A stretch of DNA of 64,000 bases. Origin: Candidatus Bathyarchaeota archaeon. GTDB taxonomy: Archaea > Thermoproteota > Bathyarchaeia > Bathyarchaeales > Bathycorpusculaceae. The notes under the pieces were generated by a model. It had not been told where the DNA came from and searched no databases. It worked only from the letters and a program-made list of their open reading frames with translations. Where the stretch lies: contig OY970280.1 of the NCBI GenBank assembly GCA_963715865.1, forward strand, positions 2,240,001 through 2,304,000, in the 5' to 3' direction. Numbering within the stretch: position 1 is the first letter of the stretch; the number at the start of each line of letters is the position of its first letter. The position numbers were made by a program, and so were the translations under genes. This document shows, piece after piece, positions 4,599 to 43,111 of this stretch.

Positions 4599-4617
4599 CA
4601 AGGGCGCACGCATTTGA

Positions 4618-5112: not shown

Positions 5113-5418
5113 ATGGGATTTGTTAAGGTTGCTCCAAAAGAAGAAGTACCCGCAGGCAAAATGAAGCTGGTCGAAGCAAACGGAACGCAAGTTTTGCTCG
5201 CAAACATCGCAGGGGAATACTATGCTATCGGCAACAAGTGTACTCACAGGGGCTGCAAGCTTTCCAGTGGGACATTAGATGGGGAAATCGTGGAGTGTCC
5301 CTGCCACGGCTCGAAGTTTAGTGTGAAGACTGGCGAAGCGGTACATGGACCTGCAACCAAGCCGGAACCCAAATATGCCGTGAAGGTGGAAGAAGACCAG
5401 ATTTTAATCAACGCCTAA
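5113..5418 (+). CDS. Rieske [2Fe-2S] ferredoxin
   Basis: CTHRGC...CPCHGSKF motifs. Confidence 0.92.
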   Translation: MGFVKVAPKEEVPAGKMKLVEANGTQVLLANIAGEYYAIGNKCTHRGCKLSSGTLDGEIVECPCHGSKFSVKTGEAVHGPATKPEPKYAVKVEEDQILINA

Positions 5419-5512
5419 TACCACCATAATCCTCGTTTTTTTCTATAGGTAGTGCAATTATGAGCGAAATGAATCAAGTGCAAAAGTCAATTTCCTGCCC
5501 TTTTGCGCGCGC

Positions 5513-6621
5513 CAGTGCGTTGCTAAATTGTTTGGATTGACATTTTCATGCTAAACGGACTTGTATTTGATCAATTCGTAAGTCTGGTATGGAGAAAAAT
5601 GGAAGTTCCTGCTCCATTTTGCGCAGTTTAAACATGGACGACATAGAAGAGGTTCTATCCGAAGCCTACCACAAAGAAGGCGCAGGCAGGCCTCCGAGAA
5701 AGCCGATAGGCATATTCAAAGCGTTAATAATTAAACGGGTCAAGCAAATTCCAAGCGACAGAGAACTGTACCGCCGATTATGGCAAGACGAAGACATGAG
5801 ACGAGTCTGCGACATAGAAGAACAGGAAAAACCATACCGTCCCTCACAGGTGACGCGTTTCAGGCATCGCGTCGGCGTTGAAAGGCTCGAGAAAATCCTG
5901 AATACCCTGCTTGATGAGCTACGCAAGCGCAAAGTCATAGTCGGCAAGAAGGTGGTCATGGATGCCACGTTTGTCAAGGCTTACAGCAGGCGAGATCCAC
6001 ATGACAACAGCCGTGGAAAGTCGGATCCACAAGCCAGAGTGGGTAGAGACGGCAAAACCTACGAGCTTGGCTACAAGCTGCATTTAGCGGTGGACGCGAA
6101 GTCTGAGCTGCCTCTGGCTGTCGTTGTGGCTCCGGCTAACGATAACGAGAAGAAGCATGCTCCAGCCCTGTTCAAGAAAGCTTGGAAGGCTGCGGGTGGA
6201 AGGACGAGGTTTATGATCGGTGACTCGCAGTTTTCAAGCAAGCGTTTTCGCGAGAAAGTGTCTGATCTGGGTGTTAGGGCGGTGATTCCTTATCCCACGA
6301 ATCAGGTGCGAGGCAAGAAGGGAGTGCTCAGGGTTGATCATTTCTTTAGGGTTCATGGGCCTACGGGGGAGAAAAGGCTTTACAGGTCAAGGTACTCGAT
6401 TGAGCGGGTCAATTCTAGACTCAAAGAGCAGGTGTGTCTGGAGAATCATCGGGTTAGGGGTTTGGAGAGAATGACGTTTCATGCCTTGTTCTGTTTGATT
6501 GCGATGCTTCTGAACGCGGTTGCTGCTGTCCGATTGGGCAAACGGGAAAAGGTTCGGTCCATGTCTTTTCTGGCAGAATGAGCAGAAATTAACATGAAAA
6601 ATTCAATTTAGCAACGAACTG
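5513..6621 (+). mobile_element. Complete IS element, DDE type (IS5/IS1182-like)
   Basis: 18-bp TIRs CAGTGCGTTGCTAAATTG and (reverse complement) CAGTTCGTTGCTAAATTG; GCGCGC on both flanks (5507-5512, 6622-6627), read as a 6-bp TSD. Confidence 0.85.
5589..6581 (+). CDS. DDE transposase
   Basis: N-terminal GRPP...SDREL domain; MDATFVKA, GYKLHLAVD, IGDSQF, RYSIERVNSRLK. Confidence 0.9.
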   Translation: MEKNGSSCSILRSLNMDDIEEVLSEAYHKEGAGRPPRKPIGIFKALIIKRVKQIPSDRELYRRLWQDEDMRRVCDIEEQEKPYRPSQVTRFRHRVGVERLEKILNTLLDELRKRKVIVGKKVVMDATFVKAYSRRDPHDNSRGKSDPQARVGRDGKTYELGYKLHLAVDAKSELPLAVVVAPANDNEKKHAPALFKKAWKAAGGRTRFMIGDSQFSSKRFREKVSDLGVRAVIPYPTNQVRGKKGVLRVDHFFRVHGPTGEKRLYRSRYSIERVNSRLKEQVCLENHRVRGLERMTFHALFCLIAMLLNAVAAVRLGKREKVRSMSFLAE

Positions 6622-6837
6622 GCGCGCTCATAAAATGGCATGAGCGCCCACCACGTTTAACACTTCTCATACCATCGCGCTACTTACGCGTGGTGATGAA
6701 TTATCTGTTTCGCATTTTTTGTTGTGAGAATTCGTTTGGTAGATTGTTGAAACGACCTTTGAGGTCACCTATGAAGTTACCAGAACCATAAGAAAAAGTT
6801 TATAGCGAGGAAACTATTCAAAATATCTGGTTGTCAC

Positions 6838-7239
6838 ATGGCAACTATTCCTAAAGAGATTGTTGATATTCTTAATGCGCAAGATTCAATTAAAATCTTA
6901 GCTTCAGCTGATGAAAACGGAATGCCTAATGCGGTACCTGTCTACAGTATAACACCTATTAGTAATGACACATTAGCTTTTGCGGAAATGATGATTATAC
7001 ATACAAAGCATAACCTAGAAAAAACCAAGAAAGCTTCTGTAACAGTTTTTAAGCTTCCTGCCACTGCTTATCAACTAAAGGGCACATTTCTCGGTTTCCA
7101 AACGTCAGGTCAACTGTTTGATAATTTTGCAAAAAGGATGGCTGAACATAAATTGCCTCCTATCAAAAGTGTTGGCATCATAAAAGTCGAGGAAGTTTAT
7201 GCTGCTTCTCCTGGGGCAGGTAGCAAAAAGTTAGCGTAA
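6838..7239 (+). CDS. Pyridoxamine 5'-phosphate oxidase-like FMN-binding protein
   Basis: ILASADENGMPNAVP...T.HNL....KASV...YQLKG pattern. Confidence 0.75.
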   Translation: MATIPKEIVDILNAQDSIKILASADENGMPNAVPVYSITPISNDTLAFAEMMIIHTKHNLEKTKKASVTVFKLPATAYQLKGTFLGFQTSGQLFDNFAKRMAEHKLPPIKSVGIIKVEEVYAASPGAGSKKLA

Positions 7240-7324
7240 AAACTTCAAGTTTTTGACTCAGTTTTTGTCTTTTTCTTATTGTTTCCAAATGCATGCGTGA
7301 AATTTAAACGTGAATGTAAACCTA

Positions 7325-7338
7325 ACCCTCCGCACCAA
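7325..7338 (+). repeat. Short copy of the tRNA-Leu 3' end, ACCCTCCGCACCAA (internal att remnant)
   Basis: Identical to 8064-8077; includes CCA. Confidence 0.65.
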
Positions 7339-7414
7339 TGTTAAAGGCTTGTTTCTTTACGGGTTATAATAATCTTAAAATCTTTCTTTGCCATATATGT
7401 TTATGGTGATGTTT

Positions 7415-7609
7415 ATGTCTAAGAAAACAACGGTAATCTTGCGTGACGATGTTTACCAAACGCTAAAAGAGAAAGCAGGCGCCCGAAACATTTCCAACGA
7501 AATAAACAAAATCCTCATTGAGCACTTTGCAAAAACAGAAAGCATGTTTGGCACCATGAAAAAAACTGACACTGCTGACCTAAGAGACCACAAGGACCGC
7601 TGCTTATGA
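7415..7609 (+). CDS. Putative VapB-type antitoxin
   Basis: Small protein (KTTVILRDDVYQTL) overlapping the vapC start by ATGA; ATG at 7415 preceded by GGTGA. Confidence 0.75.
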   Translation: MSKKTTVILRDDVYQTLKEKAGARNISNEINKILIEHFAKTESMFGTMKKTDTADLRDHKDRCL

Positions 7610-7995
7610 GATATGTTATCGACTCCTATGCTTGGATTGAATATTTCATGAGGACAAAAGCAGGTGAGAACGCCAAGGCTATAATTGAAAATTCTGAAGA
7701 AAAAATAACCCCTACCATTTGTTTAGCGGAAGTTTATGCCAAGACCCTCAAGGTTGAAAGTCAAGAACTTGCCGAAAAGCAAAAGACTTTCGTGAAAGAA
7801 AAAAGTGCGCTTGTATATCTGGACGAGTCAATCGCCGTAGAATCCGCTAAAGTGCAAGTCCGTATGAAAAAAGAAATTGATGGATGGGGACTAGCTGACT
7901 CAATAGTTTACGCAACTGCAATCGTTAAGAAAGCAGAAGTAGTAACAGGAGACGAACACTTTAAAAAACTCAAAAATGTGCTGTTTATAAAATAA
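7606..7995 (+). CDS. vapC: PIN-domain toxin
   Basis: YVIDSYAWIE, LAEVY, LADSIVYA, VTGDEHF acidic PIN motifs. Confidence 0.9.
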   Translation: MRYVIDSYAWIEYFMRTKAGENAKAIIENSEEKITPTICLAEVYAKTLKVESQELAEKQKTFVKEKSALVYLDESIAVESAKVQVRMKKEIDGWGLADSIVYATAIVKKAEVVTGDEHFKKLKNVLFIK

Positions 7996-8014
7996 CCAAC
8001 CTTGGTTTAATTAA

Positions 8015-8076
8015 GCGTAGGACTGAGGCTCCTATCCCGCAGGGGTTCGTGGGTTCAAATCTCACCCTCCGCACCA
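8015..8076 (+). repeat. attR: 59-bp copy of tRNA-Leu 317-375 plus CCA
   Basis: One mismatch (ATCTCACC vs ATCCCACC); starts at the anticodon stem. Confidence 0.92.
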
Positions 8077-8168
8077 AATTGCAAAGAAACTTTTCCATCA
8101 AAAAACCATTTTTCATAAGTAACGGTTAAAAGCCAATGATGCACACAAATATTTAGCATCCAAAAGGT

Positions 8169-8798
8169 TTGGTTACAAAAATGCAATCCGCTAAAACCGA
8201 ACAAAGAAAATTCGTATTTGTTGACCCAGGCAAGTGTACTGGTTGCGGAATCTGCGAGTACGCTTGCACACTAGAAAAAGGCGAAGCCATCTGGAACCCA
8301 ATCAGGTCCAGAATCCGCGTTATCCGCATGACACCACTCTTCAACTTCGCCCTTGCCTGTCGCGCATGCAAAGACGCCAAATGCGTAAAAGCATGCCCAG
8401 AAAAAGCTCTTTCACAAGCAGAAAACACAGGCTTACTGATAATCGATGAGAAGAAATGTAAAGGCTGCGATTGGTGCGTTCAAGCCTGCGAATACGGCGG
8501 AATCACCATACACTCCGACACAGGAAAAGCCATCGCCTGTGACCTTTGCCAAGGTGAACCCAAATGCATCGAAGCATGCCCAGAAGAAGCCTTAGAACTT
8601 GTTGATTCTGACGAAGCAGCAGAAAAACGTTTCAACGACGCGCTAGAAAAGTTGCCTGCAGAAACCGAGCAGTTAACCACCGCAGTCAAGAACAAGGATT
8701 GGAAACCACTGCTAGCCATTGCAGAGAAGCGATCCGAAAAAGTCACAGAGAAGCTTGAAGCGTTAAACAAGAAGGCAGTTGCACAAAAACAAAAGTAA
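8169..8798 (+). CDS. 4Fe-4S dicluster electron-transfer protein with helical C-terminal tail
   Basis: CTGCGICEYAC, CRACKDAKCVKACP, CKGCDWCVQAC, CDLC...CIEACP. Confidence 0.85.
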   Translation: MVTKMQSAKTEQRKFVFVDPGKCTGCGICEYACTLEKGEAIWNPIRSRIRVIRMTPLFNFALACRACKDAKCVKACPEKALSQAENTGLLIIDEKKCKGCDWCVQACEYGGITIHSDTGKAIACDLCQGEPKCIEACPEEALELVDSDEAAEKRFNDALEKLPAETEQLTTAVKNKDWKPLLAIAEKRSEKVTEKLEALNKKAVAQKQK

Positions 8799-28409: not shown

Positions 28410-29135
28410 TCACTTTCTGAACTTTTGCAGTTTTCTTAGCATCTCTTTGTCGCCTTCAGCGTCTCCAGCGCATGTGGCGATTATGCCGTCTACCAAGCCA
28501 TCCAGCTTTGCTGCCTTTTCTTCAACTGTATCCATGGTTGCGGCGACTGGCCACCCAATCATTTTCACTGTTTCTACATTTTTAGGTGTTCCCACTAGGA
28601 AGTATGAGTAGATGGGCTTGTTTAGGCGTTTGCACTCTTTAGCCACCTGCTCCAGTATTGGGAAGGATTTGTCTTCAAGCCTCATGAAGTAAATGAAGTC
28701 CCATGGCTCTCTCACTCGGGCAAGGGTTTCCTCTACAGATCGTCTTGCCGTTAGTAAGCAGCCAAGCTTGAGGTTTTTGGTCTTTACTGTGTTGCGTATG
28801 AAGTCTCGGGCTTCCTCGGAGGACGCCAACATTTTTATGGGCTCTCCGTACTTGGGGTCGTCGCCCATGGTAACTGCCAAGCCGTCGAGACCAACGATGT
28901 CTGCGGCTAAAGCTAAGCCTCCTACTTCGACTGGGCCTTTGTATTTTAGGATAAATATTGGTACGATTATTTTTTCAGGGTATTTAGTTTTGAGGATGCA
29001 ACTTACAACTGTGCCGCTGGCGGCTGGAAAACCGGCAGCGCTGTCAGTGACGTTCCATCCATCAACTAGATCTTTGATTTCGTCTGCAAGTTTTAGAAAT
29101 TTGCGTGTTGGAACAAACTCGTTTAGTATTTTCAT
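28410..29135 (-). CDS. Methylenetetrahydrofolate reductase-like flavoprotein (short archaeal type)
   Basis: MKILNEFVP...VTDSAAG...VPIF...AVTMGDDPKYG mirrors MetF EFFPP/VT..AGG/LRGD.P; start at ATG 29135 preferred (ORF track 29198). Confidence 0.65.
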   Translation of the reverse strand: MKILNEFVPTRKFLKLADEIKDLVDGWNVTDSAAGFPAASGTVVSCILKTKYPEKIIVPIFILKYKGPVEVGGLALAADIVGLDGLAVTMGDDPKYGEPIKMLASSEEARDFIRNTVKTKNLKLGCLLTARRSVEETLARVREPWDFIYFMRLEDKSFPILEQVAKECKRLNKPIYSYFLVGTPKNVETVKMIGWPVAATMDTVEEKAAKLDGLVDGIIATCAGDAEGDKEMLRKLQKFRK

Positions 29136-29286
29136 AGAGAGTTCATCTCGGCTTAAGGCTAGATGTGTTTTCATTAAAAAATCTTTTGCATGTGGCAAAG
29201 CAGGCTTTAAAGCGGATGCCTAATTGAGAAGCAATTTATCATTGCCAAACATTCTCAGGGAAAAAAACAAGAAGTATAAAAAACAC

Positions 29287-30873: not shown

Positions 30874-31653
30874 ATGAAGGTTGCTGTTTCTGGTAAAGGC
30901 GGCGTCGGCAAAACCCTGATTGCTGGCGGTTTAGCTCGCGGTTTTGCTGAGCGTGGATTAAAGACGATGGCGATTGATGCAGATTCTTCTCCGAATCTCG
31001 GCTTGACGTTAGGCTTATCCGTTGAGGAAACTCGCAAAATCGTTCCTATTTCAGAGAACAAGGAGCTTGTGGAATCAAAAACTAGCACGGGTTACTCAGG
31101 AGTTTACCGCTTGCAATTCACCGTTGACGACATCGTCAAAGACTATTCAGTTAGCACTCCGCTTGGCGTGAACTTGATTGTTATGGGTACAGTGCGGTCG
31201 ATGGGTGCAGGCTGCATGTGTGCTCCAAACGCTGTTATCCGTGCTTTGCTTAGGCATCTTGTTGTTGAACGAAACGAAGCAGTTGTTTTGGATTTGGAAG
31301 CTGGCGTGGAGCATATCGGCAGAGGCACCGCCAGACATGTTGATGCATTACTCATCGTTGCCGACTCCAACCTGAAATCTCTGGAAATTGCCAAGCACAT
31401 TCACGATATGGCTGCTGCCGCCGGCATGAAGCAGCTTTATCTTGTTGGCAACAGAGTAATGAACGAAGCCCAGAAAGAGGCTATTCAAAACTTCGCAGAC
31501 AAAAACGGCTTATCCCTGCTTGCTTTTGTACCCTTTGACCAGAAAGTGATTGAAGCTGACATGGTTGGTGAAACGCCGCTTAAAAACAAGGAAATCTCAG
31601 CGGTTAAGACCATAGATAATATATGCGAGCTTTTGCTTAAGAAAACCGCATAA
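30874..31653 (+). CDS. cooC: CODH/ACS nickel-insertion ATPase CooC1
   Basis: GKGGVGKT, DADSSPNL, GAGCMC, DLEAGVEHIGRG. Confidence 0.92.
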   Translation: MKVAVSGKGGVGKTLIAGGLARGFAERGLKTMAIDADSSPNLGLTLGLSVEETRKIVPISENKELVESKTSTGYSGVYRLQFTVDDIVKDYSVSTPLGVNLIVMGTVRSMGAGCMCAPNAVIRALLRHLVVERNEAVVLDLEAGVEHIGRGTARHVDALLIVADSNLKSLEIAKHIHDMAAAAGMKQLYLVGNRVMNEAQKEAIQNFADKNGLSLLAFVPFDQKVIEADMVGETPLKNKEISAVKTIDNICELLLKKTA

Positions 31654-31668: not shown

Positions 31669-32445
31669 TTGAAAATGAAAACTCTGGTAACGGTGGGTCG
31701 TGGCGGAACAGGAAAATCCAGTTTCACCGCTCTAATGACAAAATGCTTCATCGAAACTGGACAAGCACCCTTATTACTGGTTGACGCAGACCCAGACCAG
31801 AACCTTGCCGAAATGCTCGGAATAGACCTCAGAGAAGCTGGAAAATCAACCATCGCCGAATTGCTTGTCAGCACATTCATCGAGAAAGGAGGCACCACAG
31901 TAGGAATTCCTCCAACGGAACGAATAGAAAGTAGAATTTGGGAAAACGGCTTATACGAGAGCAAAAATTTCGACTTCCTTGCAATCGGCACTAAATGGGT
32001 TGAAGGCTGCTACTGCATGCCCAACTCCGCTTTGAAGGCAGCGCTGGAATCTTTGACGAAGAACTACAAGTACGTGCTCATCGATTCTCCCGCGGGGCTT
32101 GAACACTTGAACAGGCGCATCGCGTCAAAGGTGAATGACGTTTTCGACATTCTTGACCACTCAAAGAAGAGCTTTGAACATGTCAAACGAGCGTACCGCA
32201 TCGCCAAAGAAGTCAACATGGAATTTAACAATTTCTACCTCATCGGCGGCTACAGGTTTCCCGCTGAACTCGGCAGTAAAGCTGAGAGCGAATTGAAGTT
32301 TAAGTATGTGGGCAAAATCGTTGCTGACGAGCAGGTAGACGATTACGTTCTTAATGGGAAATCATTGCTTGACTTGCCTTCTGACAACGCCGCGTATCTT
32401 TCTGTTAAAGCGATAATGAGGGCAACGGGTTACATACAGCAATAA
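31669..32445 (+). CDS. cooC: CooC2/AcsF-type nickel-insertion ATPase
   Basis: GRGGTGKS, DADPDQNL, EGCYC, DSPAGLEHLNRR. Confidence 0.88.
   Translation: MKMKTLVTVGRGGTGKSSFTALMTKCFIETGQAPLLLVDADPDQNLAEMLGIDLREAGKSTIAELLVSTFIEKGGTTVGIPPTERIESRIWENGLYESKNFDFLAIGTKWVEGCYCMPNSALKAALESLTKNYKYVLIDSPAGLEHLNRRIASKVNDVFDILDHSKKSFEHVKRAYRIAKEVNMEFNNFYLIGGYRFPAELGSKAESELKFKYVGKIVADEQVDDYVLNGKSLLDLPSDNAAYLSVKAIMRATGYIQQ
32293..32445 (+). repeat. 153-bp direct repeat, left copy (3' end of cooC2)
   Basis: Aligns without gaps to 35840-35992; 41/50 identical residues and a shared stop. Confidence 0.9.
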
Positions 32446-32496: not shown

Positions 32497-33123
32497 TCAT
32501 TTTCTCCCTGCGAGGACATCGTCAACTCGAGGGAAAGGAGGACGAGGACCAAACGTGGAGCAAGTTCTGCCAGTGGGGCATACGTCACGGCAATAACTAC
32601 ATGTCGAGCAGAGACCTGCCTTTTCTGGGAAAACTGCAATGCATCGGTATACTCCTCTACCAATGAATCCTATAGCGCTTTCCCAATTTGCTTCAACACA
32701 ACGACGTACACATAGTCCGCAAAGGATGCATTTTGTTGGGGCCAATGGTACCCTTGACCTGAATCGAGATAAATCCGCGTTATATTCGCTGACCAACGCC
32801 CTCATTTTGCTACTGACATCTTCTCCCGCGGATGTGGCAGCTAATTCTAAAATGATCTTTCTTATTTTAACGATTTTGGGAGATCTGGTTTTTACCTTTA
32901 ACCCCTCCTCCGCTGGATAGCAACATGAAGCTACCACTTGAGCCCTTCCTCTTTTTTCGATTTCTACACTGCAAAATCGACAGGCACCGTAGGGTTCCAG
33001 TCCTTCATACCAGCATAGGGTTGGGATTTCCACGCCTGCATGCTGCGCCGCCTCTAAAACGGTTGTTCCTTCCTCTGCCTTAACCTCTTTATCATCAATC
33101 TGTAAAGTAATGACTTTCTTCAT
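32497..33123 (-). CDS. Small Fe-S subunit, NuoG-N/HydA-N/HoxU-like, with no catalytic domain
   Basis: IPTLC...GACRFC...SC [2Fe-2S]; CILCGLCVRRC and CSTCSYCRDVCP. Confidence 0.85.
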   Translation of the reverse strand: MKKVITLQIDDKEVKAEEGTTVLEAAQHAGVEIPTLCWYEGLEPYGACRFCSVEIEKRGRAQVVASCCYPAEEGLKVKTRSPKIVKIRKIILELAATSAGEDVSSKMRALVSEYNADLSRFRSRVPLAPTKCILCGLCVRRCVEANWESAIGFIGRGVYRCIAVFPEKAGLCSTCSYCRDVCPTGRTCSTFGPRPPFPRVDDVLAGRK

Positions 33124-33124
33124 T

Positions 33125-35053
33125 CTAGTTCTCTCCTTTCAATTTTCGAATTGGTTTCATTCCTTTTGGTGGAAGCGGAATGGGCTCTCCCGAAAGCTTT
33201 TTCACCGCATGGAAATTGCAAATTTCATAGCATGTCCCACATTTTATGCATTTTTCTTGGTCAATCCAATGAACCTGATCCTTGTCGCCTTGAATAGCTC
33301 CTGCTGGGCATTCCTTTAAGCAAAGGAGGCAAGCTTGACATTTCTCTGGATTTATGTAAAAATCTATCAGAGCTTTACAAACGTTAGCTGGGCAACGTTT
33401 CTCTATTATGTGCTGCTCCCATTCGTCTCTGAAATACTTCAGAGATGTGAGGACAGGATTTGCTGCGGTTCTGCCCAATGCGCAGAGTAAAACCTCCCTC
33501 ATTGTTTCAGCTATCTCTTCAGTTGTCTGTATGTCCTCACTTTTCCCTTTGCCAGCGCAGATATCACTTAGAATGCTGGAGAGCACTCTCAGCCCTTCAC
33601 GACAGGGGATACATTTTCCGCAGGATTCCTCGAGGAGGAAATCGACAAAATATCTAGCAACATCTACCATGCAGGTGTCTTCGTCCATGACTACCATGCC
33701 TCCAGAGCCCATCATTGAGCCAACTTTTACAAGTTCATCGTAGTCTACTGGAATATCGAGGTGCTGCTCTGGGATGAAGCCTCCAGACGGCCCTCCGATC
33801 TGAACAGCTTTAAACTTCTTGCCGTCTCTAATGCCTCCACCTATCTTAAAGATTAAATCCCGAAGAGTTATTCCCATAGGCACCTCAACTAAACCTGTGT
33901 TGTTAACTTTCCCAACGAGGGAGAAGATCATAGTTCCGCTGTTGCCTTCGGTTCCTATGCTCCTAAACCACTCAGCGCCTTTAAGGACTATTAGAGGGAT
34001 GGTAGCCCACGTCTTAACGTTGTTGAGGAGGCTAGGCTTATCCCAAAGGCCTTTAACCGCTGTGTGAACGTATTTGGGTCTGGGTTCACCAACCTTCCCC
34101 TCGATTGCTGTCATAAGAGCGCTAGATTCTCCTGAGACAAAAGCTCCTGCACCCTTGTGAACCTTAACCCTGAGGCTTAGACTCGAGCCAATAATGTCTT
34201 CGCCGAGCAACCCGTACTCTTCAGCCTGCCTTATAGCTGTGGATATGTTTTCTACAGCTATAGGATACTCTTCCCTAACGTAAACAAAGCCTTCATTGGC
34301 TCCAATCGCATACGCGCCTATTATGAGACCTTCGAGCACACTATGAGGATTACCTTCCATCAGAGATCTATCCATAAAGGCTCCTGGGTCTCCTTCATCA
34401 CAGTTAACGATGACATACTTAGGCTCGCCAGGTGCGTTCCGCGTGGTTTCCCACTTTAACCCCGTTGGAAATCCTCCTCCACCCCTTCCCCGCAGTTTTG
34501 ACTTTTTAACTTCCTCAACCACCTGTTCAGGTGTCATTTCGAAGAGGACTTTGGCAAGGGCGCTGTATCCCCCTAGAGCAATGTAATCTTCGATATTCTT
34601 TGGGTCTATTTTCGCGTTATTTTCCAGAAGCAATCTACGCTGGTATTTGTAGAAGGGTATGTCCTCAAGCTTCTGCACTTCTTTGCCGGTGGCTGGGTCT
34701 TTGTATAGCAACCGTTCCACAACTTTCTTTTCAAGAATGCTTTTAGAAACAATTTCCGGGGCATCTTCAGGCTTAACCTTAAAATAACAGATTTCTTCTG
34801 GATAGATCGTTACCCTTGGTCCCTGCTCACAGAAGCCCAAGCATCCTGTTTCCTTAATTTCCACTTGATCTTTTAGTCCTTGCTTCTCCAGTTCGGCTAT
34901 GAAAGCTTCCTTAACCTTCGAAGCGTCAAGCGCAACACAGCCTGTGCTAACACAAACCGAGACGCTGGATTTACTCGGTTTTCTCTTGGACTTGATTTCT
35001 TCGCGAAGCTTTTCGAGGTCTTTAGGTGATCGTATACACTTAACGGTTTCCAT
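33125..35053 (-). CDS. NADH/FMN subunit, NuoF/HydB-like, with extra N-terminal 2Fe-2S and C-terminal 2x4Fe-4S domains
   Basis: TGCLGFCEQGP, RGRGGGGFPTG, NCDEGDPGAFMDR, SCGKCIPCREG, CPANVC, CQACLLC...CIKCGTC. Confidence 0.93.
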   Translation of the reverse strand: METVKCIRSPKDLEKLREEIKSKRKPSKSSVSVCVSTGCVALDASKVKEAFIAELEKQGLKDQVEIKETGCLGFCEQGPRVTIYPEEICYFKVKPEDAPEIVSKSILEKKVVERLLYKDPATGKEVQKLEDIPFYKYQRRLLLENNAKIDPKNIEDYIALGGYSALAKVLFEMTPEQVVEEVKKSKLRGRGGGGFPTGLKWETTRNAPGEPKYVIVNCDEGDPGAFMDRSLMEGNPHSVLEGLIIGAYAIGANEGFVYVREEYPIAVENISTAIRQAEEYGLLGEDIIGSSLSLRVKVHKGAGAFVSGESSALMTAIEGKVGEPRPKYVHTAVKGLWDKPSLLNNVKTWATIPLIVLKGAEWFRSIGTEGNSGTMIFSLVGKVNNTGLVEVPMGITLRDLIFKIGGGIRDGKKFKAVQIGGPSGGFIPEQHLDIPVDYDELVKVGSMMGSGGMVVMDEDTCMVDVARYFVDFLLEESCGKCIPCREGLRVLSSILSDICAGKGKSEDIQTTEEIAETMREVLLCALGRTAANPVLTSLKYFRDEWEQHIIEKRCPANVCKALIDFYINPEKCQACLLCLKECPAGAIQGDKDQVHWIDQEKCIKCGTCYEICNFHAVKKLSGEPIPLPPKGMKPIRKLKGEN

Positions 35054-35066
35054 GTTTATTCACCTG

Positions 35067-35714
35067 CTACGTATATTTAGATAGAATTCTTTTCACGGCG
35101 AGCAGCTTTAAGTTTCCATAGTATTCGCCGTCAATAGTCATCATTGGGCCGAGAGCGCAACAGCCTAAACAGTTGACTGTTTCAAGACTGAATCTGCCGT
35201 CTGGGGTGACTTCACCCGTATCTATGTCGAGAAAGCTCTGCAACTTCTCAAGGATTATTGGCGCACCTCTCACTTTACAGGAAGTTCCCGTGCAAACCCT
35301 TATTAGATGTCTCCCTCGCGGACTGAGAGAGAAGGCTTTGTAAAAGGTTGCGACTTGGTATACTTGATTGATAGGTATCCCCAGCTGTTTGCTTACTTCT
35401 GATAGCATTTCCATCGGAAGCCAGCCGAAATTCTTTTGCAATCTCAAAAGGATTTGAATTAACATGCTTTTGTCGTATTGGTAGTCCTCTATTGTCTTAT
35501 TCACTATTCCAGCAATACCACGCAATTTTACATGTTGCTCTTTTAATGAGAATTTGCTTTTCAACTCCATATCCAACCCTTTTCGACGTAACATTTGAGC
35601 TTTTTCTTCAGGAATCCTAACCTTGTAACGGCATGTAGGGCAGGTGGCATAATGCTCGTTCTCGCCTTGGTAATCCCATCTATAGTCACAATGTTGACAT
35701 ATGAGCAATACCAT
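35067..35714 (-). CDS. NuoE/HydC-like [2Fe-2S] subunit with fused N-terminal Zn-ribbon
   Basis: VATFYKAF, VCTGTSCKVRG, VNCLGCCALGP; N-terminal CQHC...CPTC. Confidence 0.88.
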   Translation of the reverse strand: MVLLICQHCDYRWDYQGENEHYATCPTCRYKVRIPEEKAQMLRRKGLDMELKSKFSLKEQHVKLRGIAGIVNKTIEDYQYDKSMLIQILLRLQKNFGWLPMEMLSEVSKQLGIPINQVYQVATFYKAFSLSPRGRHLIRVCTGTSCKVRGAPIILEKLQSFLDIDTGEVTPDGRFSLETVNCLGCCALGPMMTIDGEYYGNLKLLAVKRILSKYT

Positions 35715-35839: not shown

Positions 35840-35992
35840 TTGAAGTTTAAGTATTTGAGCAAGATGGCTGCTGATGAGCAACTGGACGAGTACGTTCTTA
35901 ATGGGCAGTCACTGCTTGATTTGCCTTCTGACAATGCCGCGTATCTTTCTGTTAAGGCTATCATGAAGGCGACGGGTTACATAAAGCAATAA
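35840..35992 (+). repeat. 153-bp direct repeat, right copy (orphan cooC2 3' tail)
   Basis: LKFKYLSKMAADEQLDEYVLNGQSLLDLPSDNAAYLSVKAIMKATGYIKQ*. Confidence 0.9.
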
Positions 35993-36125: not shown

Positions 36126-38482
36126 TTGACATTGACCAGCAAAAATGTACACGTAAAGATAGATGAAATGAAGACTAGTACTGGTCTTATTAAGAACCTT
36201 GAAGTTTCTATAGGAAAAATTGTTAATGACAACTGGACCGAGCCCATGGGACCCACCCCAATGCCCTCACTAACAACCTTGAGGGACTGGGACATGAAGC
36301 TCCTCACCAGATACAAGCCCTTCTATATGCCTGATTGTGACCTCTGCTGCCTCTGCACTTATGGAAAATGCGATTTGACAGCTGGTAAACGTGGAGCTTG
36401 CGGTTTAGATATCGGTGCCCAATCGTCTCGTATAGTGCTTTTGGCTTGCAGTATTGGAGCGGCAACCCACACAGGTCACGCCCGTCATGTTGTTGACCAC
36501 TTGATCGAGAAATATGGTCGAAAGCATCCTATTGATGTAGGCGGCTTAAACGTTAAGGTTGAAGCTCCAGTAACGAGACTTGTCACTGGAATAAAACCTG
36601 AAACTCTTGGCGACCTAGAGGAAGTTTTGGAATACTGCGAAATGCAGATTACTCATTTACTCTCAGTTGCGCATACAGGCCAAGAAGGAAACAATTTGGA
36701 TTTTGAATCAAAGGCTTTTCATGCTGGTAGAATTGACCAAGTAGGCATGGAAGTCGCGGATATAGCTCAAATCTCAACACTAAACTTCCCGAAAGCTGAT
36801 CCTGAAGCGCCACTCATCAAAATGGGTATTGGATCTGTCGACACATCAAAACCAGTCATCATGTGCATCGGTCATAACGTCGTGCCCTCAGTTGGAATTA
36901 TCGATTACATGAAAGAAAGCAAGCTTGACGACAAAATGGAAGTCGTGGGATTATGTTGTACTGCCTTCGACAACACAAGATATTACGACCGAGCAAAAAT
37001 CGTCGGTCCAATCTCATGGCAACTACGCTTCATACGTGGAGGATTCGCAGATGTAGTCGTCCTTGACGAGCAATGTGTCCGAACAGATGCTTTTGATGAA
37101 GCACGCAAAGTTCGCGCTCCAGTCATCGCCGCGTCAGAGAAGAACTGTATGGGCTTTAAGAACCGCACAAACGACCCGGCAGACGAAATCGTCGCTGACC
37201 TTGTAAGCGGCAAAGTACCTGGTGTACTCATTCTTGACCCTGAAAAAGTCGGCGAAGTAGCAGTCAAAGTTGCAAAGCAAATAGCACCTATACGCAAGAA
37301 AATGACTAATCTTCCCACGATCGATGAAATAAAATCTCTTGCTAAAACCTGCAGACAATGCAACCTTTGCCAGAGAAGCTGTCCACAGGACCTTAGAATC
37401 CCCGCCGCGCTGAAAGCCGCCGCTGAAGGAAACCTTGCGCCATTAACTGACTTGTATGAAGAATGTATCGGTTGCGGACGCTGTGAAGAAGCATGCCCAG
37501 TCAAACTACAAATACACAGCTTCATAGTCAAAGCTGGCGAGAAGTCAATGACGGAAGAAAAGAACTTATGCCGTGCAGGCAGAGGCGCCGTCCAAGACAT
37601 AGAAATACGCAATGTCGGCAGCCCAATCGTACTCGGAGAAATTCCCGGCATACTTGCAGTCGTGGGTTGCGCAAACTATCCACATGGCGGCAAAGATGTC
37701 TATGATATATGCAGAGAATTTGCTCTACAGACGCTTTATAGTGGTAACATCAGGTTGCTCGGCCATGTCCGCAGGAAGCTACAGAAATGAAGAAGGCAAA
37801 ACATTATACGAGGAATTCTCAGGCGGATTTGAGGCTGGAGGAGTACTTAACGTCGGTTCATGTGTTGCAAATGCGCATATTGCAGGCGCCGCCATCAAAG
37901 TCGCTAACATCTTTGCAAAGAGGAACTTGCGAGGTAACTACGAGGAAATAGCTGATTATATCCATAACCGTGTAGGCGCAGTCGGCTTAGCTTGGGGTGC
38001 ATACTCGCAGAAAGCAGCATCAATTGCTTCTGGCTTCTGGAGTTTAGGCGTTCCAGTACTCGTTGGTCCACACGGCAGCAAATACCGGCGCATGCTCCTT
38101 GGTAGAGAGGACAAGCCTGAAGATTGGGAAGTTTACGATGCACGCACAGGCAACAAAGTAAACATCGGGCCAGTCTCCCGAACACTTGTTCCAAACAGTT
38201 GAAACACCACAAGAAGCAATGGTCGCCATCGCAAAACTATGCATCAGACCAAACGACACTTGGAAAGGACGCAGCATAAAACTAAGCCACTACGTAGACT
38301 TACACAAACGCTACTATGGATGCATGCCGCAGGACTTGCACTTGTTCGTGCGAACAATGGCTGATGTGCCAATGACACTGAAAGAAGAATTCACCAAGAT
38401 ACTGGAAGAGAAAGGCTGGAAGGAAACTGTGATTCCTGACCCAACATTGCTTCCAAGAATGATTCGTAAAATGAAGGAGTGA
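36126..38482 (+). CDS. cdhA: ACDS CO dehydrogenase alpha subunit, split into three ORFs by two apparent +1 frameshifts (~37727, ~38177)
   Basis: PDCDLCCLCTYGKC, GHNV, GLCCT, DEQC, two CxxCxxC ferredoxin motifs, VGSCVANAH; homology continues across the frame changes. May be a pseudogene or an assembly error. Confidence 0.9.
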
Positions 38483-38488
38483 TAAGAC

Positions 38489-39032
38489 ATGTCTTGTGAA
38501 CCTTGGCAATGTGCAGAAATAGCTGCTACAAAGAAAGCAAACCCCATACAGAAACCTGAGATAGCAGTAGCAATGATAAAGAAAGCATCACGCCCCATCC
38601 TCATTGTAGGTAGTAATGCTACTGAACGCTGGATGGAAGGCAAGCCACTAATCGAGTACCTTATTGACTTCGCTAACGCGTCAAAAGTTCCAGTAGTCGC
38701 CACAGCGCACATGGTTGGCGAATTCCTAAAACGTGGTTATCAACCAGCAGGCTTTATGTCTGCAATGGACATCGGTAACAGGCTTGTTGATCCTGAATGG
38801 CAAGGACTCGACGGCAAAGGTCACCCTGACTTGGTTTTGTTCGTCGGTTTGCCATACTACATGGAAGCATTAATACTCTCAGGACTCAAGCACTTTGCTC
38901 CAGTTCTCAAAACCATGACCTTGGACAACCTTGTATCATCCGCATGCAAGCTGGTCTTTCCCAAACGCAACCTTGGAGGAATGGGCTGCAAATCTCAAAG
39001 TCATAACTTCAAAATTTGAAGGAGGACAATAA
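38489..39032 (+). CDS. cdhB: ACDS epsilon subunit with apparent +1 frameshift (~38931)
   Basis: EPWQCAE, MIKKASRPILIVG; conserved YHPHASWSFPN tail lies in the shifted frame, ending at TAA 39032. Confidence 0.88.
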
Positions 39033-39035: not shown

Positions 39036-40445
39036 ATGTCAATGTTTAAAGATATACCTGTTGATGTTGGCGTAATCTACGAAGGAGAACGCATCAGAAG
39101 AAACGACATGCAAGTAGAATTTGGCGGTCCAACAGTTAAAGAAAAGTTTGAACTAGCAAAAGTAAAACCCATGAACGAAATCGAAGACGGCAAAATCACC
39201 ATAATCGGCCCAGACATCAAAGACCTCAAAGAAGGCGACGCATTTTCACTAGGCATCTTAGTGGAAGCTGCAGGCGCAACACTTGACCAAGGACTCGAAG
39301 GAGTAATTGAAAGACGCATCCACGGCTACCTAAACTACATCGAAGGCTTCATGCACCTAAACCAACGCTATGACATCTGGATACGCTTAAGCAAAAAATC
39401 ATTCCAAAAAGGCTTAAACAGTTTTGAATCAATCGGCAAAGTACTCTACCGCTTATTCAAAAGCGAATTACCCATAATTGAGAAAGTACAAATTACCTTC
39501 ATAACAGACCCAGCAAAAGTGGCCGAGCTCTACCCGAATGCTATGCAAGATTACGAATCACGCGACGCTAAAGCGAGAGGCCTCAAAGATGAAGACGTCG
39601 ATAAATTCTACGGTTGCACCCTATGTCAATCATTCGCTCCAACCCACGTTTGCGTAATTACCCCACAAAGATACTCTAACTGCGGAGCCATCAGCTGGTT
39701 TGACGGAAAAGCCTCAGCAAACGTCGATCCTAAAGGACCAGTATTCGCAATCGACAGAGGCGAATTAATAAACGCTGAAAAAGGCGAGTTCAGCGGCGTT
39801 AACGAAGTCGTTAAAAAACGCACTATGGGAGAAGTAACCCAAGTCTGGCTGTACACAGCGTTCGATCACCCACACACTTCATGCGGATGCTTCGAGGCAG
39901 TAGCATTCTACATTCCAGAAGTAGACGGCTTCGGCGTCGTAAACAGAAGCTTCAAAGGCGTAACAGTAAACGGCTTACCATTCTCAACACTCGCTGACTC
40001 TACTGCCGGAGGACGACAAATAGACGGCTTCCATGGAATGTCGATTGAATACATGCGTAGCAAGAAGTTCCTATCTGCAGACGGCGGATGGAACCGCATA
40101 GTCTGGCTTCCAAAGGAAGTTAAAGAACGAGTAAAAGACTTCATACCCCAAGACGTCATTGACAAAATTGCCACCGAAGAAAACGCAACTGGCGTCGACG
40201 CATTGAAAGCATTCCTGAAGGACAAGAATCACCCAGTAGTCGCAAGATGGGTAGCTGAAGAAGCTCCAGCAGCAGAAGCCGTAGAAGTTAAAGAAGAAGC
40301 AGCGGGCACAATGATGCCAGTTGCCACAGCAGCGTCACTGCCAATAATGGCTGGCGGATTCAAAATCATCCTCAAAGATGCAAAAATCTACGCTAACAAA
40401 GTCATAATAACAACCGTAAAGAGCGAAAAACAAGAGAAACGGTGA
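39036..40445 (+). CDS. cdhC: ACDS beta subunit (acetyl-CoA synthase)
   Basis: CTLCQSFAPTHVC, CGAISW, PHTSCGCFE. Confidence 0.96.
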   Translation: MSMFKDIPVDVGVIYEGERIRRNDMQVEFGGPTVKEKFELAKVKPMNEIEDGKITIIGPDIKDLKEGDAFSLGILVEAAGATLDQGLEGVIERRIHGYLNYIEGFMHLNQRYDIWIRLSKKSFQKGLNSFESIGKVLYRLFKSELPIIEKVQITFITDPAKVAELYPNAMQDYESRDAKARGLKDEDVDKFYGCTLCQSFAPTHVCVITPQRYSNCGAISWFDGKASANVDPKGPVFAIDRGELINAEKGEFSGVNEVVKKRTMGEVTQVWLYTAFDHPHTSCGCFEAVAFYIPEVDGFGVVNRSFKGVTVNGLPFSTLADSTAGGRQIDGFHGMSIEYMRSKKFLSADGGWNRIVWLPKEVKERVKDFIPQDVIDKIATEENATGVDALKAFLKDKNHPVVARWVAEEAPAAEAVEVKEEAAGTMMPVATAASLPIMAGGFKIILKDAKIYANKVIITTVKSEKQEKR

Positions 40446-41671
40446 CCCAATTGCCTCAAGACGGCGACAAGAAAAAAGAGGATGAAGGATTAAAACTCAG
40501 CAGTGACCTACTGGAAGCGCTTGCAAAATTCCAACAGATCGAGCTGCAAGACTTCGAAATGGATGTCAAAGAACTGGAAATAATCTTTGAGCCGGGAATG
40601 GCTGGGCAAATAATGCCAAAAATAAAGCTTCCAGGCATAGCAGGCGGAAAACCAACCGCCATGCTGCAGACAGCTTTCATACCTCCAGTCGAAACCTATC
40701 CAAACAAGATCACTGAAGTAAAACTTGGAGCAACCAGAAGCGAAGGCGGAACACGCGGAAAATCACTAATAATAGGCGGCGAAACATCGCCTGCATTCTA
40801 CAATTTTGAGCGACCAACCACTCACAAACCCGTAATCACTCTTGACGTTTTCGACATGGAAGTTCCATTAAGCAAAGCGGTAAAAATGCACGTCAAAGAT
40901 GTCGTCGGTGACCCAGCGGCATGGGCAAAGCTTGCGGTGGACAAGTTCGACGCAGACATGGTTACAATTCACTTAATCAGCATCGACCCGTTACTCAAGG
41001 ATGCTACACCAAAAGATGCAGTGAAAACAGTTGAAAAAGTTCTGCAAGCCGTTGACGTCCCGCTAGTTATCGGCGGTTGCGGTGACCCAGTTAAAGACGC
41101 AGATGTTTTTGAGGCAATCTGCGAAGCTTTCCCAGGCGAACGTTTCCTGATTAGTTCAATAACACGGGATATGGATGTTGAGCGCTGTGCAAAATACGTT
41201 AAAAAGAACGGGCATATCGCGTTATCATTCACTCCGATGGATTTGAATTTGGCACGGGAACTTAACAGGCGATTATACGATTTCATGGGCAGGGAAGACA
41301 TTGTCATGGACTTAACCACTGCCGCATTAGGCTACGGCTTAGACTACGCATTCACTAACATGGAACGCGCTAGGCTCGGCGGATTAATGGGCGATGTTGA
41401 ATTAGCTCACCCAATGTCTTCGGGAACAACTAATGCTTGGGCGGCACGTGAAGCTTGGCTGAAAATGTCTGCTGAATGGGAACCACGAGAGCTCCGAGGT
41501 CCACTGTGGGAAGTGACAACAGCTTTAACACTATTATTGACTGGCGTTGACTTGTTCATGATGATGCACCCGGCAGCAGTAAAAACCCTCAAGGACGTTA
41601 CAAACTACCTAACAAGCGGCAAAAAAGCAGACGCCTCCAAATTTGCTGAATGGGTCAGCGTAAAGGCTTAA
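40442..41671 (+). CDS. cdhD: ACDS delta subunit (corrinoid FeS protein, small)
   Basis: LGATRSEGGTR, ALGYGLDY..TNMERARL, AWAAREAW, MMHP. Confidence 0.95.
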   Translation: MTQLPQDGDKKKEDEGLKLSSDLLEALAKFQQIELQDFEMDVKELEIIFEPGMAGQIMPKIKLPGIAGGKPTAMLQTAFIPPVETYPNKITEVKLGATRSEGGTRGKSLIIGGETSPAFYNFERPTTHKPVITLDVFDMEVPLSKAVKMHVKDVVGDPAAWAKLAVDKFDADMVTIHLISIDPLLKDATPKDAVKTVEKVLQAVDVPLVIGGCGDPVKDADVFEAICEAFPGERFLISSITRDMDVERCAKYVKKNGHIALSFTPMDLNLARELNRRLYDFMGREDIVMDLTTAALGYGLDYAFTNMERARLGGLMGDVELAHPMSSGTTNAWAAREAWLKMSAEWEPRELRGPLWEVTTALTLLLTGVDLFMMMHPAAVKTLKDVTNYLTSGKKADASKFAEWVSVKA

Positions 41672-41677
41672 AGGAGT

Positions 41678-43111
41678 TTGAATGGCATGAGCGAAAAAAA
41701 GAAAGCTGGATTAAAAGAATTAAGCCCCATAGACGTTTACAAGCTCCTTCCAAAAACTAACTGTAAAGAATGCGGTCAAGACAACTGCATGGCTTTCGCC
41801 ACAAAAATTGTCAACCGCGAAATAAATATTGACCAGTGCCCGCCGCTGCTAAAGAAAGAAAACGAGAAAGCCTACAATCAACTGAAAGAAATGCTAAAAC
41901 CAGCAGTCAAAGAAGTCATCGTCGGCGTCGGAGACAAAGCTACGAAACTCGGCGGCAAACTAGTCATGTACCGCCATGAATTCACCTATACGAACCCTAC
42001 AGCCATCGCAATCGACGTAACCGACGAAATGACCGAGCAGGAAGTCGTAAACCGAATAAAACGCATAGAAAACTATAGCTTCGAATACATCGGCTACACG
42101 CTAAAGCTGGACATGATTGCTGTCCGCTCAACATCAGGCGACGCTGAAAAATTCAAAGTCACCGTGAAAAAGGTCGCTGAAACAACCAATTTACCAATGA
42201 TCCTGTGCGCATTGAACCCCAATGTCCTTGAAGCAGGATTGATGGCGGCGCCAAATGCACGACCACTGCTCTATGCGGCTAACGCTGAGAACTGGAAAGA
42301 CATGGCAGAACTCGCATTAATGTACAATTGCCCACTAGTGGTTTCTGCACCAAACGACCTAACCACTCTGTTTTCACTTGCTAAAACTATGATGGCTTAC
42401 GGTGTAACCGACTTAGTCTTAGACCCCGGCACATTCACGAACGAAGGGCTCCCAGATACCATTAACAACTTTACTATGCTACGCAGAGCAGCATGCAAAG
42501 GCGGCGAAGAACTAGCCGGATTCCCATTAATGGGTGTCCCAATGGTTGCTTGGGTGGACAGGGGCGAAACAGCTGAAGACCTCATAAAATGGCGCGAATC
42601 ATACTTAGCCTCAATGCTCCTTGTCCGATACGCTGATGTGCTTGTGATGCATGGCGCTGACGGCTGGTCACTGCTACCGACAACAGTGTTAAGACAAAAC
42701 ATTTACACCGACCCACGCAAACCAGTTGCAGTCGCTCCAGGACTCAAAGTGTTCGGAACTCCAGACGAAAACTCGCCAGTGTTCTTCACATCAAACTTTG
42801 CCTTAACATACTACACAGTCGCATCAGACATAGAAAGCAACAAACTCAACGCATACCTAATCGTCGTAGAAACTGAAGGCTCAGCAATCGACAGCGGAGT
42901 CGCAGGACGCAAACTAACAGCCGAACGCGTAGCAGACGCAATCAAAGCTTCAGGCATCGAAAGCAAAGTTAAACACAGAAAAATCATCATCCCAGGCAAA
43001 GCCTCAAGGATCAGCGGCGAAATCGAAGAACTAAGCGGCTGGAAGGTACAAGTTGGTCCACGCGACAGCAGCGAAATCCCCAAGTACCTGATAGAGAAAT
43101 GGCAACCCTAA
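41678..43111 (+). CDS. cdhE: ACDS gamma subunit (corrinoid FeS protein, large)
   Basis: LPKTNCKECGQDNCMAFA...CP, RQNIYTDPRKP, TSNFALTYY, GPRDSS. Confidence 0.96.
   Translation: MNGMSEKKKAGLKELSPIDVYKLLPKTNCKECGQDNCMAFATKIVNREINIDQCPPLLKKENEKAYNQLKEMLKPAVKEVIVGVGDKATKLGGKLVMYRHEFTYTNPTAIAIDVTDEMTEQEVVNRIKRIENYSFEYIGYTLKLDMIAVRSTSGDAEKFKVTVKKVAETTNLPMILCALNPNVLEAGLMAAPNARPLLYAANAENWKDMAELALMYNCPLVVSAPNDLTTLFSLAKTMMAYGVTDLVLDPGTFTNEGLPDTINNFTMLRRAACKGGEELAGFPLMGVPMVAWVDRGETAEDLIKWRESYLASMLLVRYADVLVMHGADGWSLLPTTVLRQNIYTDPRKPVAVAPGLKVFGTPDENSPVFFTSNFALTYYTVASDIESNKLNAYLIVVETEGSAIDSGVAGRKLTAERVADAIKASGIESKVKHRKIIIPGKASRISGEIEELSGWKVQVGPRDSSEIPKYLIEKWQP

Follow-up and report, generated by a model that had tools for sequence, protein, structure and literature searches.

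Within a 64,000-nucleotide stretch of the genome of a Candidatus Bathyarchaeota archaeon (GenBank assembly GCA_963715865.1, contig OY970280.1, positions 2,240,001 to 2,304,000; G000:C1:2240001-2304000 in our numbering, and 'the window' in what follows) we examined a three-gene operon, bfuC-bfuB-bfuA, located on the minus strand at window positions 32497-35714. Judged by its sequence, the trio is a BfuABC/HydABC-family core with a type-2 BfuA subunit, from which the third-substrate module is missing. The trio lies beside genes for an archaeal carbon monoxide dehydrogenase (CODH) and acetyl-CoA synthase, and we tentatively propose that this bifurcating-type core is most likely partnered by the neighbouring CODH component, CdhA/CdhB, of the acetyl-CoA decarbonylase/synthase complex (ACDS), an assignment that we consider plausible but not yet probable. 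The genome is a single contig of 2.35 Mb, 97.9% complete, whose close relatives are peat and palsa metagenome-assembled genomes (MAGs) labelled Candidatus Bathyarchaeia.

The intergenic gaps of 13 and 1 nucleotides indicate that bfuC, bfuB and bfuA form one operon. The 642-residue BfuB subunit (B642) comprises, according to Pfam, an N-terminal 2Fe-2S_thioredx domain (residues 25-104), a NuoF-type core for flavin mononucleotide (FMN) and NAD(H) (Complex1_51K, E 1e-43, plus SLBB), an N3-type [4Fe-4S] site, B1 (NADH_4Fe-4S, E 2e-29), and a C-terminal ferredoxin-like domain with two [4Fe-4S] clusters (residues 566-613). Across an alignment of 33 sequences the four B1 cysteines (C478/C481/C484/C524) are invariant. 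Invariant or nearly so are the ligands of the N-terminal [2Fe-2S] cluster (C34/C39/C71/C75), those of a His/Cys linker site (H548/C554/C559, of which the CPANVC motif at residues 554-559 is part, and whose metal is not readable from sequence) and those of the C-terminal clusters (C572/575/578/582 and C602/605/608/612). The extra BfuB clusters that are missing from non-bifurcating homologues are all present in B642.

The 208-residue BfuA subunit (A208) consists of a Fer2_4 [2Fe-2S] domain (E 1e-20) and a ferredoxin-like part with two [4Fe-4S] clusters, and its cysteine ligands are conserved. Neither Pfam nor inspection of motifs gave an H-cluster, NiFe or molybdopterin domain or an HxxxCxxC motif. 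The type-2 BfuA is defined as carrying clusters A1, A2 and A4 (Schut et al. 2022, PMC9304861), and A208 has these three and no His-ligated A3; aligned with the HoxU protein of the same genome, it lacks the insert for the His-ligated cluster that HoxU possesses. The chain ends only 25 residues past its last cluster ligand, in a 22-residue tail that carries a conserved ...GPxPPFPxVDDVLAGRK sequence and a short predicted helix (residues 200-204). The operon has only three genes, and neither BfuA itself nor any further gene of the cluster provides a Bfu third-substrate module.

The BfuC subunit is NuoE-like and its gene lies 13 nucleotides upstream of bfuB, as in the Bfu family. It bears an N-terminal extension of ∼70 residues (window 35505-35714) with a zinc-ribbon-like CxxC...CxxC pattern, for which a profile search returned zinc-ribbon matches only below threshold. 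The extension and its four cysteines are conserved in the clade that carries the short BfuA and are missing from the FrhB-type clade described below. In one subclade of family f12 the extension is replaced by a region with sub-threshold similarity to NikA (ribbon-helix-helix); besides the window, the loci compared here are L060, L061 and L073.

These results agree with an earlier note, based on the letters and open reading frames (ORFs) of the window alone, that had described a HydABC/NuoEFG-type module with no catalytic subunit: the ORFs, the extended B architecture (N-terminal 2Fe-2S, FMN/NAD site, CPANVC and C-terminal 2x4Fe-4S) and the 208-residue A subunit devoid of catalytic domains were all recovered by Pfam and by the alignments. 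Its placement of the module in the HydABC family was likewise upheld, by searches of solved structures and by alignments. In a search of Protein Data Bank (PDB) sequences B642 matched every solved bifurcating BfuB chain over its full length (E 1e-197 to 1e-236), the best match being 7t2r_B, the bifurcating NiFe-HydB of Acetomicrobium mobile (E 3e-236), and the second best WorB (9mqx_B); 8a6t_B, the HydB proteins of T. kivui, A. woodii and T. maritima, and NfnB were also matched. Complex I NuoF and formate dehydrogenase beta subunits align with the B642 core only, and all NCBIfam matches of the three proteins, including those to NuoF, HoxU and NuoG, fall under the curated cut-offs.

By sequence, A208 comes closest among solved structures to WorA (9mqx_A, E 3e-34), and the same chain is the top Foldseek match (E 2e-17, TM 0.75) of its AlphaFold model (pLDDT 85.8). 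In the WorABCSL structure this short BfuA is the plug by which a separate module is recruited (PMC12318220), and every characterised Bfu enzyme requires a third substrate (PMC9304861). Because A208 lacks a catalytic domain of its own, a separate protein must serve as third redox partner. Among its nearest relatives the A208 domain is found joined to FrhB, GltD-like, HdrA-like, GcvH, polyferredoxin and receiver domains, a variety consistent with the idea of a plug. Two proteins of the representative library illustrate the range (P0252 and P0255, in which an A208-like domain is joined to a response-regulator receiver, 330 residues, or to a GcvH lipoyl-carrier domain, 433 residues).

In a tree of 41 BfuB sequences (a quick IQ-TREE search) the short-BfuA type forms one clade (support 99), whose sister (also 99) is a clade in which BfuA is fused to an FrhB domain. 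The FrhB type is the commoner one in the window's family, f1, and in f5; in genus g1 every checked genome with this BfuB clade carries one type or the other. Across a comparative sample of 301 Bathyarchaeia genomes, short-BfuA orthologues (at least 54% identical, 205-210 residues) are distributed patchily, occurring in 13 of the 15 f21 genomes and in some genomes of f12, f19 and f20. Within the window's genus the form was found, besides the window, only in G283, with 93% identity to the window's BfuA. Clustering at 50% reduces the short form to one or two representatives. Homologues of the trio on a contig labelled [Eubacterium] cellulosolvens (GCA_975851105.1; L009 and L010, 64-73% identity) were considered as a sign of bacterial origin, which we rejected because the contig is syntenic with f21 Bathyarchaeia over many genes; the label probably results from an error of binning or naming.

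The evidence for a link to CODH comes from the relatives. The earlier note had allowed that linkage to cdh might be unique to this genome; instead, Bathyarchaeia show it in five or more different arrangements of the genes. In the first, shared by the window genome, G283, palsa_986 and a more distant MAG (L091, BfuA 81% identical to the window's), cooC2 faces an inverted trio (A-B-C along the strand of cooC2), which is followed by cdhA. In L091 the trio and cdhA are separated by genes for an acetate permease-family protein (Gpr1/Fun34/YaaH) and an AMP-forming acetyl-CoA synthetase (both within 2602-8624), which share the strand of bfuCBA and lie upstream of it. The second, in G261 (family f19), reads bfuC-B-A-cdhABCDE on one strand, with metF, metV, RACo and cooC divergent from it. 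In the third (L092), bfuC-B-A and a DUF2148 gene converge on cdhB-cdhA, and in the fourth (G038, of the window's genus) the order is bfuC-B-A::frhB-cooC1-cooC2-cdhABCDE, again on one strand. The fifth, cooC1-cooC2-cdhA-[bfuA::frhB-bfuC-bfuB::cdhB]-cdhC-D-E with gaps of 2-8 nucleotides, is found in three genomes of family f1 (G229, G166 and G277) and on two independent metagenome contigs (L097 and L098); the loci are L057 9569-13899, L062, L063, L097 and L098 6091-10442.

In the fifth arrangement BfuB passes via a conserved proline-rich tail straight into CdhB, and the BfuB::CdhB fusion is the sole CdhB (PF02552) gene in G229, G166 and G277. Among 5.8 billion sequences, the only long CdhB-containing proteins were BfuB::CdhB fusions (5 clusters, 30 members). 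In the one structure that shows ferredoxin, it is bound at the C-terminal domain of BfuB (PMC12018979); CdhB is attached at that same end, so the fusion would tether CODH at the low-potential exit. By a rough, inferred estimate a random place lies <10 kb from cdh ∼1.5% of the time, which puts five cdh linkages among ∼30 lineages far above chance. Of the 38 sampled genomes that have this BfuB clade, 36 carry cdhC, as against 198 of 301 overall, which weighs little, because the genomes are related and ACDS is common.

We picture the proposed enzyme as follows. NAD(H) would react at the FMN of BfuB, low-potential electrons would pass to ferredoxin through its C-terminal two-cluster domain, and BfuC would supply the gating [2Fe-2S] cluster. 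A208 would be a bare wire ([2Fe-2S] to [4Fe-4S] to [4Fe-4S]) with its conserved tail in place of a catalytic domain. Electrons could thereby enter or leave at the FMN (NAD(H)), at the BfuB C-terminal clusters (ferredoxin or CODH) and at the free end of BfuA (the third partner). CODH might contact the free end of BfuA, or else sit at the ferredoxin site of BfuB, as in the BfuB::CdhB fusions of the relatives. Oxidation of CO or acetyl-CoA would then jointly reduce NAD+ and ferredoxin, and in reverse NADH and reduced ferredoxin would drive CO2 reduction, which would be feasible only because ACDS holds free CO very low. The observations underlying this scheme are the family membership, the cofactor sites, the lack of a partner in cis, and the recurrent linkage and fusion among relatives; that the enzyme bifurcates electrons, which partner it has in the window genome and which way the electrons flow are what we infer from them.

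A more specific form of the proposal is correspondingly more doubtful, and we offer it as a possibility rather than an expectation. The Bathyarchaeia Bfu core would dock directly on the CODH alpha2-epsilon2 component of ACDS, replacing free ferredoxin at the BfuB exit, and a mid-potential donor entering via BfuA (F420H2 through FrhB in the fused type, another carrier in the short type) would have its electrons split between NAD+ and, directly, CO2 reduction; the window trio would be the unfused form. A complex prediction for the BfuB and CdhB of L007, made with alignments, gave a score of 0.00, which weighs neither for nor against binding. If direct docking is true, it would amount to a ferredoxin-free, hard-wired power supply for the carbonyl branch of archaeal acetogenesis.

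A number of observations weigh against a CODH partner for the window trio. The fusions belong to the sister clade (BfuB ∼67% identical) and not to the short-BfuA clade of the window, and about three quarters of the sampled short-BfuA trios are not near cdh. Most of those with long flanks (L042-L046, L011, L090 and L093-L096) have no cdh within 8-10 kb, and the neighbours of the f21 trios are instead ferritin-like, rubrerythrin and peroxiredoxin genes. Because most short-BfuA trios lie away from cdh, the subfamily has a role that is independent of cdh proximity; the genomes with unlinked trios do carry ACDS elsewhere. In WorA the docking helix is buttressed by a zinc finger, which A208 does not have, and the trio is not adjoined by any gene for a CooF/WorS-like adaptor. 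The coupling to CdhA/ACDS suggested in the earlier note is thus favoured by the recurrent linkage and by the BfuB::CdhB fusions of relatives, and disfavoured by the prevalence of unlinked trios and the confinement of the fusions to the sister clade.

The locus itself adds to these points (Table 1). The earlier note had the module embedded in the CODH/ACS operon, which proved incorrect: the trio runs on the strand opposite to cdh, between cooC2 and cdhA, and is bracketed by a repeat of the cooC2 3' end, of which the right-hand copy is a relic ∼85% identical to the left (35840-35992 against 32293-32445, in the repeat alignment). In relatives with no trio between them (L083 and L057), cooC2 is followed directly by cdhA. 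Together, the bracketing repeat and the direct junction in relatives indicate that the trio is an inverted cassette inserted at the cooC2-cdhA junction, and not a member of the cdh operon. The relic also occurs in L007 (98.7%) and L052 (87.5%), and since it is common to palsa_986 and SPRUCE_357 the insertion is older than their divergence. Comparison of both copies of the cooC2 tail with relatives gave no clear answer as to which is native and which was borne by the cassette.

Table 1. Genes and repeats around the bfuCBA operon, numbered from the first nucleotide of the window
Feature	Position	Strand	Assignment and evidence
262-aa gene	28410-29198	-	adjoins frhB-like gene; no Pfam, NCBIfam or PDB sequence match
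frhB-like gene, 305 aa	29287-30204	-	Pfam FrhB_FdhB_N/C
cooC1	30874-31653	+	Pfam CbiA/Fer4_NifH/AAA_31; CODH nickel-insertion ATPase
cooC2	31669-32445	+	Pfam CbiA/Fer4_NifH/AAA_31; CODH nickel-insertion ATPase; 3' end (32293-32445) is the left-hand repeat
bfuA-like, minimal, 208 aa (A208)	32497-33123	-	Pfam; match to 9mqx_A; AlphaFold/Foldseek; alignments
bfuB-like, 642 aa (B642)	33125-35053	-	Pfam; PDB matches; 33-homologue alignment
bfuC-like, 215 aa	35067-35714	-	NuoE/HoxE-type [2Fe-2S] subunit; Pfam 2Fe-2S_thioredx, E 1.7e-50, residues 72-214
cooC2-tail relic, 153 nt including stop codon	35840-35992	+	right-hand repeat, between bfuC and cdhA
cdhA (CODH alpha)	36126-38482	+	Pfam Prismane and Fer4 on two ORFs; split into three frames
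cdhB (CODH epsilon)	38489-39019	+	Pfam CO_dh; C-terminus altered by insertion
cdhC, cdhD, cdhE (acetyl-CoA synthase, corrinoid Fe-S protein)	39036-43111	+	Pfam CdhC/ACS_CODH_B_C, CdhD, FeS and CdhD; intact

Relative to palsa_986 (L007), cdhA carries uncompensated single-nucleotide insertions near 37727 and 38174, and cdhB carries another near 38929. CdhA is intact in both relatives compared (L006 and L007), and the CdhB of the window diverges from 19 homologues beyond residue ∼147. None of the three sites lies within a long homopolymer. The other ∼15 kb of coding sequence aligned with palsa_986, in an alignment of ∼18 kb, has no further coding frameshift, and cdhC-D-E are 95-99% identical to those of L007. 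The insertions may be real decay of the CODH alpha and epsilon genes or a local assembly error. If they are real, the proposed CODH partner would be inactive in this genome. The one further gene of the Prismane family, a full-length match, seems to encode a hybrid-cluster protein rather than a CODH. The case for a CODH partner is therefore weaker for the window genome, in which the trio is unfused, inverted and beside frameshifted cdhA and cdhB genes. Separately, 24 kb from the trio and among unrelated neighbours, the window contains an orphan CooF/WorS-like four-cluster ferredoxin (Fer4_11, 209 residues, 8169-8798), with a DDE transposase gene nearby (5589-6581).

The same observations would suit a different role, in which the trio is a free-standing hub that interconverts NAD(H) and ferredoxin throughout the cell, perhaps with a soluble iron-sulfur protein or other carrier at the BfuA end, and owes its position beside cdh to insertion and a shared ferredoxin pool. 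The insertion footprint fits such a role, as does the fact that the same 215/642/207-residue trio occurs by itself at the majority of loci, among neighbours that are unrelated or differ; conservation of the BfuA tail is as strong in members linked to cdh as in those without the link, and Bathy-6 genomes are reported to be without Rnf (PMC7886697), leaving a need for a link between NADH and ferredoxin. This role is nevertheless somewhat unlikely in our judgement, because the characterised Bfu enzymes all require a third substrate (PMC9304861), cdh linkage and fusion recur far above chance, and the zinc ribbon of BfuC, like the conserved tail of BfuA, resembles a docking element. In family f21 (loci L009, L044, L058 and L095) a gene for a 388-residue ferritin-like protein begins no more than ∼70 nucleotides after bfuA, with rubrerythrin, peroxiredoxin and radical-SAM genes nearby, an arrangement that recalls the proposed peroxide-detoxifying Rub-Bfu. 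A ferritin-like or rubrerythrin partner was rejected for the window genome, where close homologues are lacking and the only match was weak and partial (29% identity, E 8e-8).

The earlier note had also offered FrhB/MetF as a partner. The FrhB-like flavoprotein, encoded 2.3 kb from the trio, alone or with the adjoining 262-residue protein, would then make up a split F420-Bfu, an enzyme type already proposed (PMC9304861), and would bear on the source of F420H2 in Bathy-6, which has been called unclear (PMC7886697). In G038 and G175, both of the window's genus, the FrhB domain of the BfuA fusion is 55-61% identical to the stand-alone protein, and the lengths agree (208 and 305 residues together, compared with fusions of 475-491). 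The stand-alone gene, however, always lies beside the gene for the 262-residue protein, a pair kept in 7 other genomes (8 in total) that in three of them (L080, L085 and L086) directly follows hoxEFUYH. Stand-alone and fused forms coexist in G166, G283 retains the trio-cdh arrangement yet has no match to the stand-alone protein at E <= 1e-40, and none of the 15 f21 genomes was found to have it. We therefore regard this partnership as improbable, the stand-alone FrhB more likely being the partner of the 262-residue protein. The identity of the latter as MetF was not confirmed: it has no match in Pfam, NCBIfam or the PDB and no BLASTP similarity to the genuine methylenetetrahydrofolate reductase (MTHFR) of a relative, and its poor AlphaFold model (pLDDT 59.5) gave generic (beta/alpha)-barrel matches only, with MTHFR (3apt_A, Z 7.2) one among many.

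The resemblance of A208 to WorA, in both sequence and fold, raises the further possibility that the trio plugs in trans into a pair formed by a tungsten aldehyde oxidoreductase (AOR) and a polyferredoxin, as in Wor-Bfu. The genome has 5 AOR genes, three of them with an adjoining Fer4_11 polyferredoxin gene, and the L090 trio has an AOR gene at a distance of 4.6 kb. Neither in the window nor at most other loci, however, does the trio adjoin an AOR or polyferredoxin gene, and with the WorA zinc finger absent from A208 such a pairing seems very unlikely.

Least likely of all, and in our view highly improbable, is a [NiFe] hydrogenase encoded elsewhere in the genome. Such a partner is suggested by the best solved match of B642, which is to a NiFe-HydB, and by four [NiFe] large-subunit genes, the fourth of which (near 906 kb) has an FrhB-family match 3 kb away. 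Three of the four, however, have their own electron-transfer genes close by (HoxEFU; HdrBC beside the Mvh-type; a fused sulfhydrogenase beta/gamma), NiFe-Bfu enzymes use the A3 cluster (PMC9304861) that A208 lacks, and at no locus was a short-BfuA trio seen to have a hydrogenase gene as its neighbour. In the hydrogenase island at G000:C1:448000-464000 (L005), genes for both subunits, large and small, of an Mvh-type enzyme accompany hdrB and hdrC; hoxEFUYH, in which HoxF is divided between two ORFs, and a sulfhydrogenase-type enzyme whose beta and gamma subunits are fused are also encoded there. The only other NuoF-type gene of the genome belongs to that complete hoxEFUYH cluster. The earlier note had foreseen a hydrogenase or formate dehydrogenase encoded elsewhere as the true partner. 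Of these, no formate dehydrogenase (PF00384) and no [FeFe] hydrogenase (PF02906) were matched in this 97.9%-complete, single-contig genome, and only the [NiFe] enzymes exist to be considered.

A CODH partner for the trio would matter because Bathyarchaeia are among the most abundant archaea of sediment and peat, and at issue are the source of low-potential electrons for their Wood-Ljungdahl pathway and the links between their NADH, F420 and ferredoxin pools. The work that found the source of F420H2 unclear calls for a bifurcating system yet to be known (PMC7886697), and acetogenesis from H2/CO2 has been doubted because no bifurcating hydrogenase was found (PMC11697101). A Bfu core repeatedly tied to archaeal CODH/ACS, and in some genomes joined by fusion to an FrhB domain as well as to the CODH epsilon subunit, is a concrete and testable candidate; if the proposal is true, the Bfu family would extend to the five-subunit archaeal ACDS. 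The Bfu family, the bacterial Codh-Bfu and F420-Bfu are already known, the latter two as predictions (PMC9304861; PMC12318220), and the principle of coupling CODH to a Bfu core is not new. The novelty claimed in the earlier note holds for the archaeal side: in the literature searched, no Bfu core tied to archaeal ACDS, no BfuB::CdhB fusion and no Bfu enzyme in Bathyarchaeia is described. The fifth arrangement, with its BfuB::CdhB fusion, is apparently undescribed. The claim does not extend to CODH-coupled Bfu in general, which has been proposed for bacteria (PMC9304861).

Among the known systems closest to the trio is Wor-Bfu (WorABCSL) of Acetomicrobium mobile (9mqx, PMC12318220), in which WorA is likewise short (247 residues), has only A1, A2 and A4, and acts as a plug. 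WorA, unlike A208 with its 22-residue tail and short predicted helix, ends in a zinc finger and an adaptor helix, and the genes for WorS and WorL lie inside the A. mobile operon, whereas the window operon has no partner gene. The HoxEFU diaphorase (group 3d) shares the NuoE/NuoF/short-NuoG layout, with a comparably short HoxU (235 residues). The window genome has a separate, true hoxEFUYH at 453-458 kb, however, whose HoxF is without the C-terminal clusters and only 51% identical to B642, and whose HoxU has the His-ligated cluster; the additional domains of B642, the lack of that cluster in A208, and the absence of adjoining hoxYH or nuo genes set the trio apart from HoxEFU and NuoEFG. Rub-Bfu (type 4 BfuBC with rubrerythrin, PMC9304861) invites comparison with the f21 short-BfuA trios, which are likewise near ferritin-like, rubrerythrin and peroxiredoxin genes; unlike the trio, it has no BfuA. 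F420-Bfu, predicted in Methanosaetaceae (PMC9304861), shares the type-2 BfuA lineage, and in the window's genus the sister clade has BfuA fused to an FrhB domain; the window BfuA has no such domain, and the nearby FrhB belongs to another gene pair.

A further parallel is the bacterial Codh-Bfu (CodhABCSF), predicted from genomes only (PMC9304861, PMC12318220), in which a BfuABC core is likewise genomically tied to CODH and for which the proposed reaction likewise links CO/CO2 with NAD(H) and ferredoxin. Codh-Bfu combines CooS with the CooF polyferredoxin in the bfu cluster, encoded in Firmicutes between bfuB and bfuA. The window, in contrast, has the archaeal CdhAB of a five-subunit ACDS, a trio on the opposite strand and no adjoining CooF-like gene, the nearest Fer4_11 gene being 24 kb off. 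Whereas the BfuA of Codh-Bfu ends in a zinc finger and an adaptor helix, A208 has no four-Cys motif after its last cluster and only the short predicted helix. What Codh-Bfu and the Bathyarchaeia have in common is the recurrent genomic association of Bfu with CODH, which in the latter takes five arrangements, fusions included. In the window's relatives, as distinct from Codh-Bfu, the tie is made through BfuB::CdhB at the ferredoxin end of the core rather than at the BfuA end.

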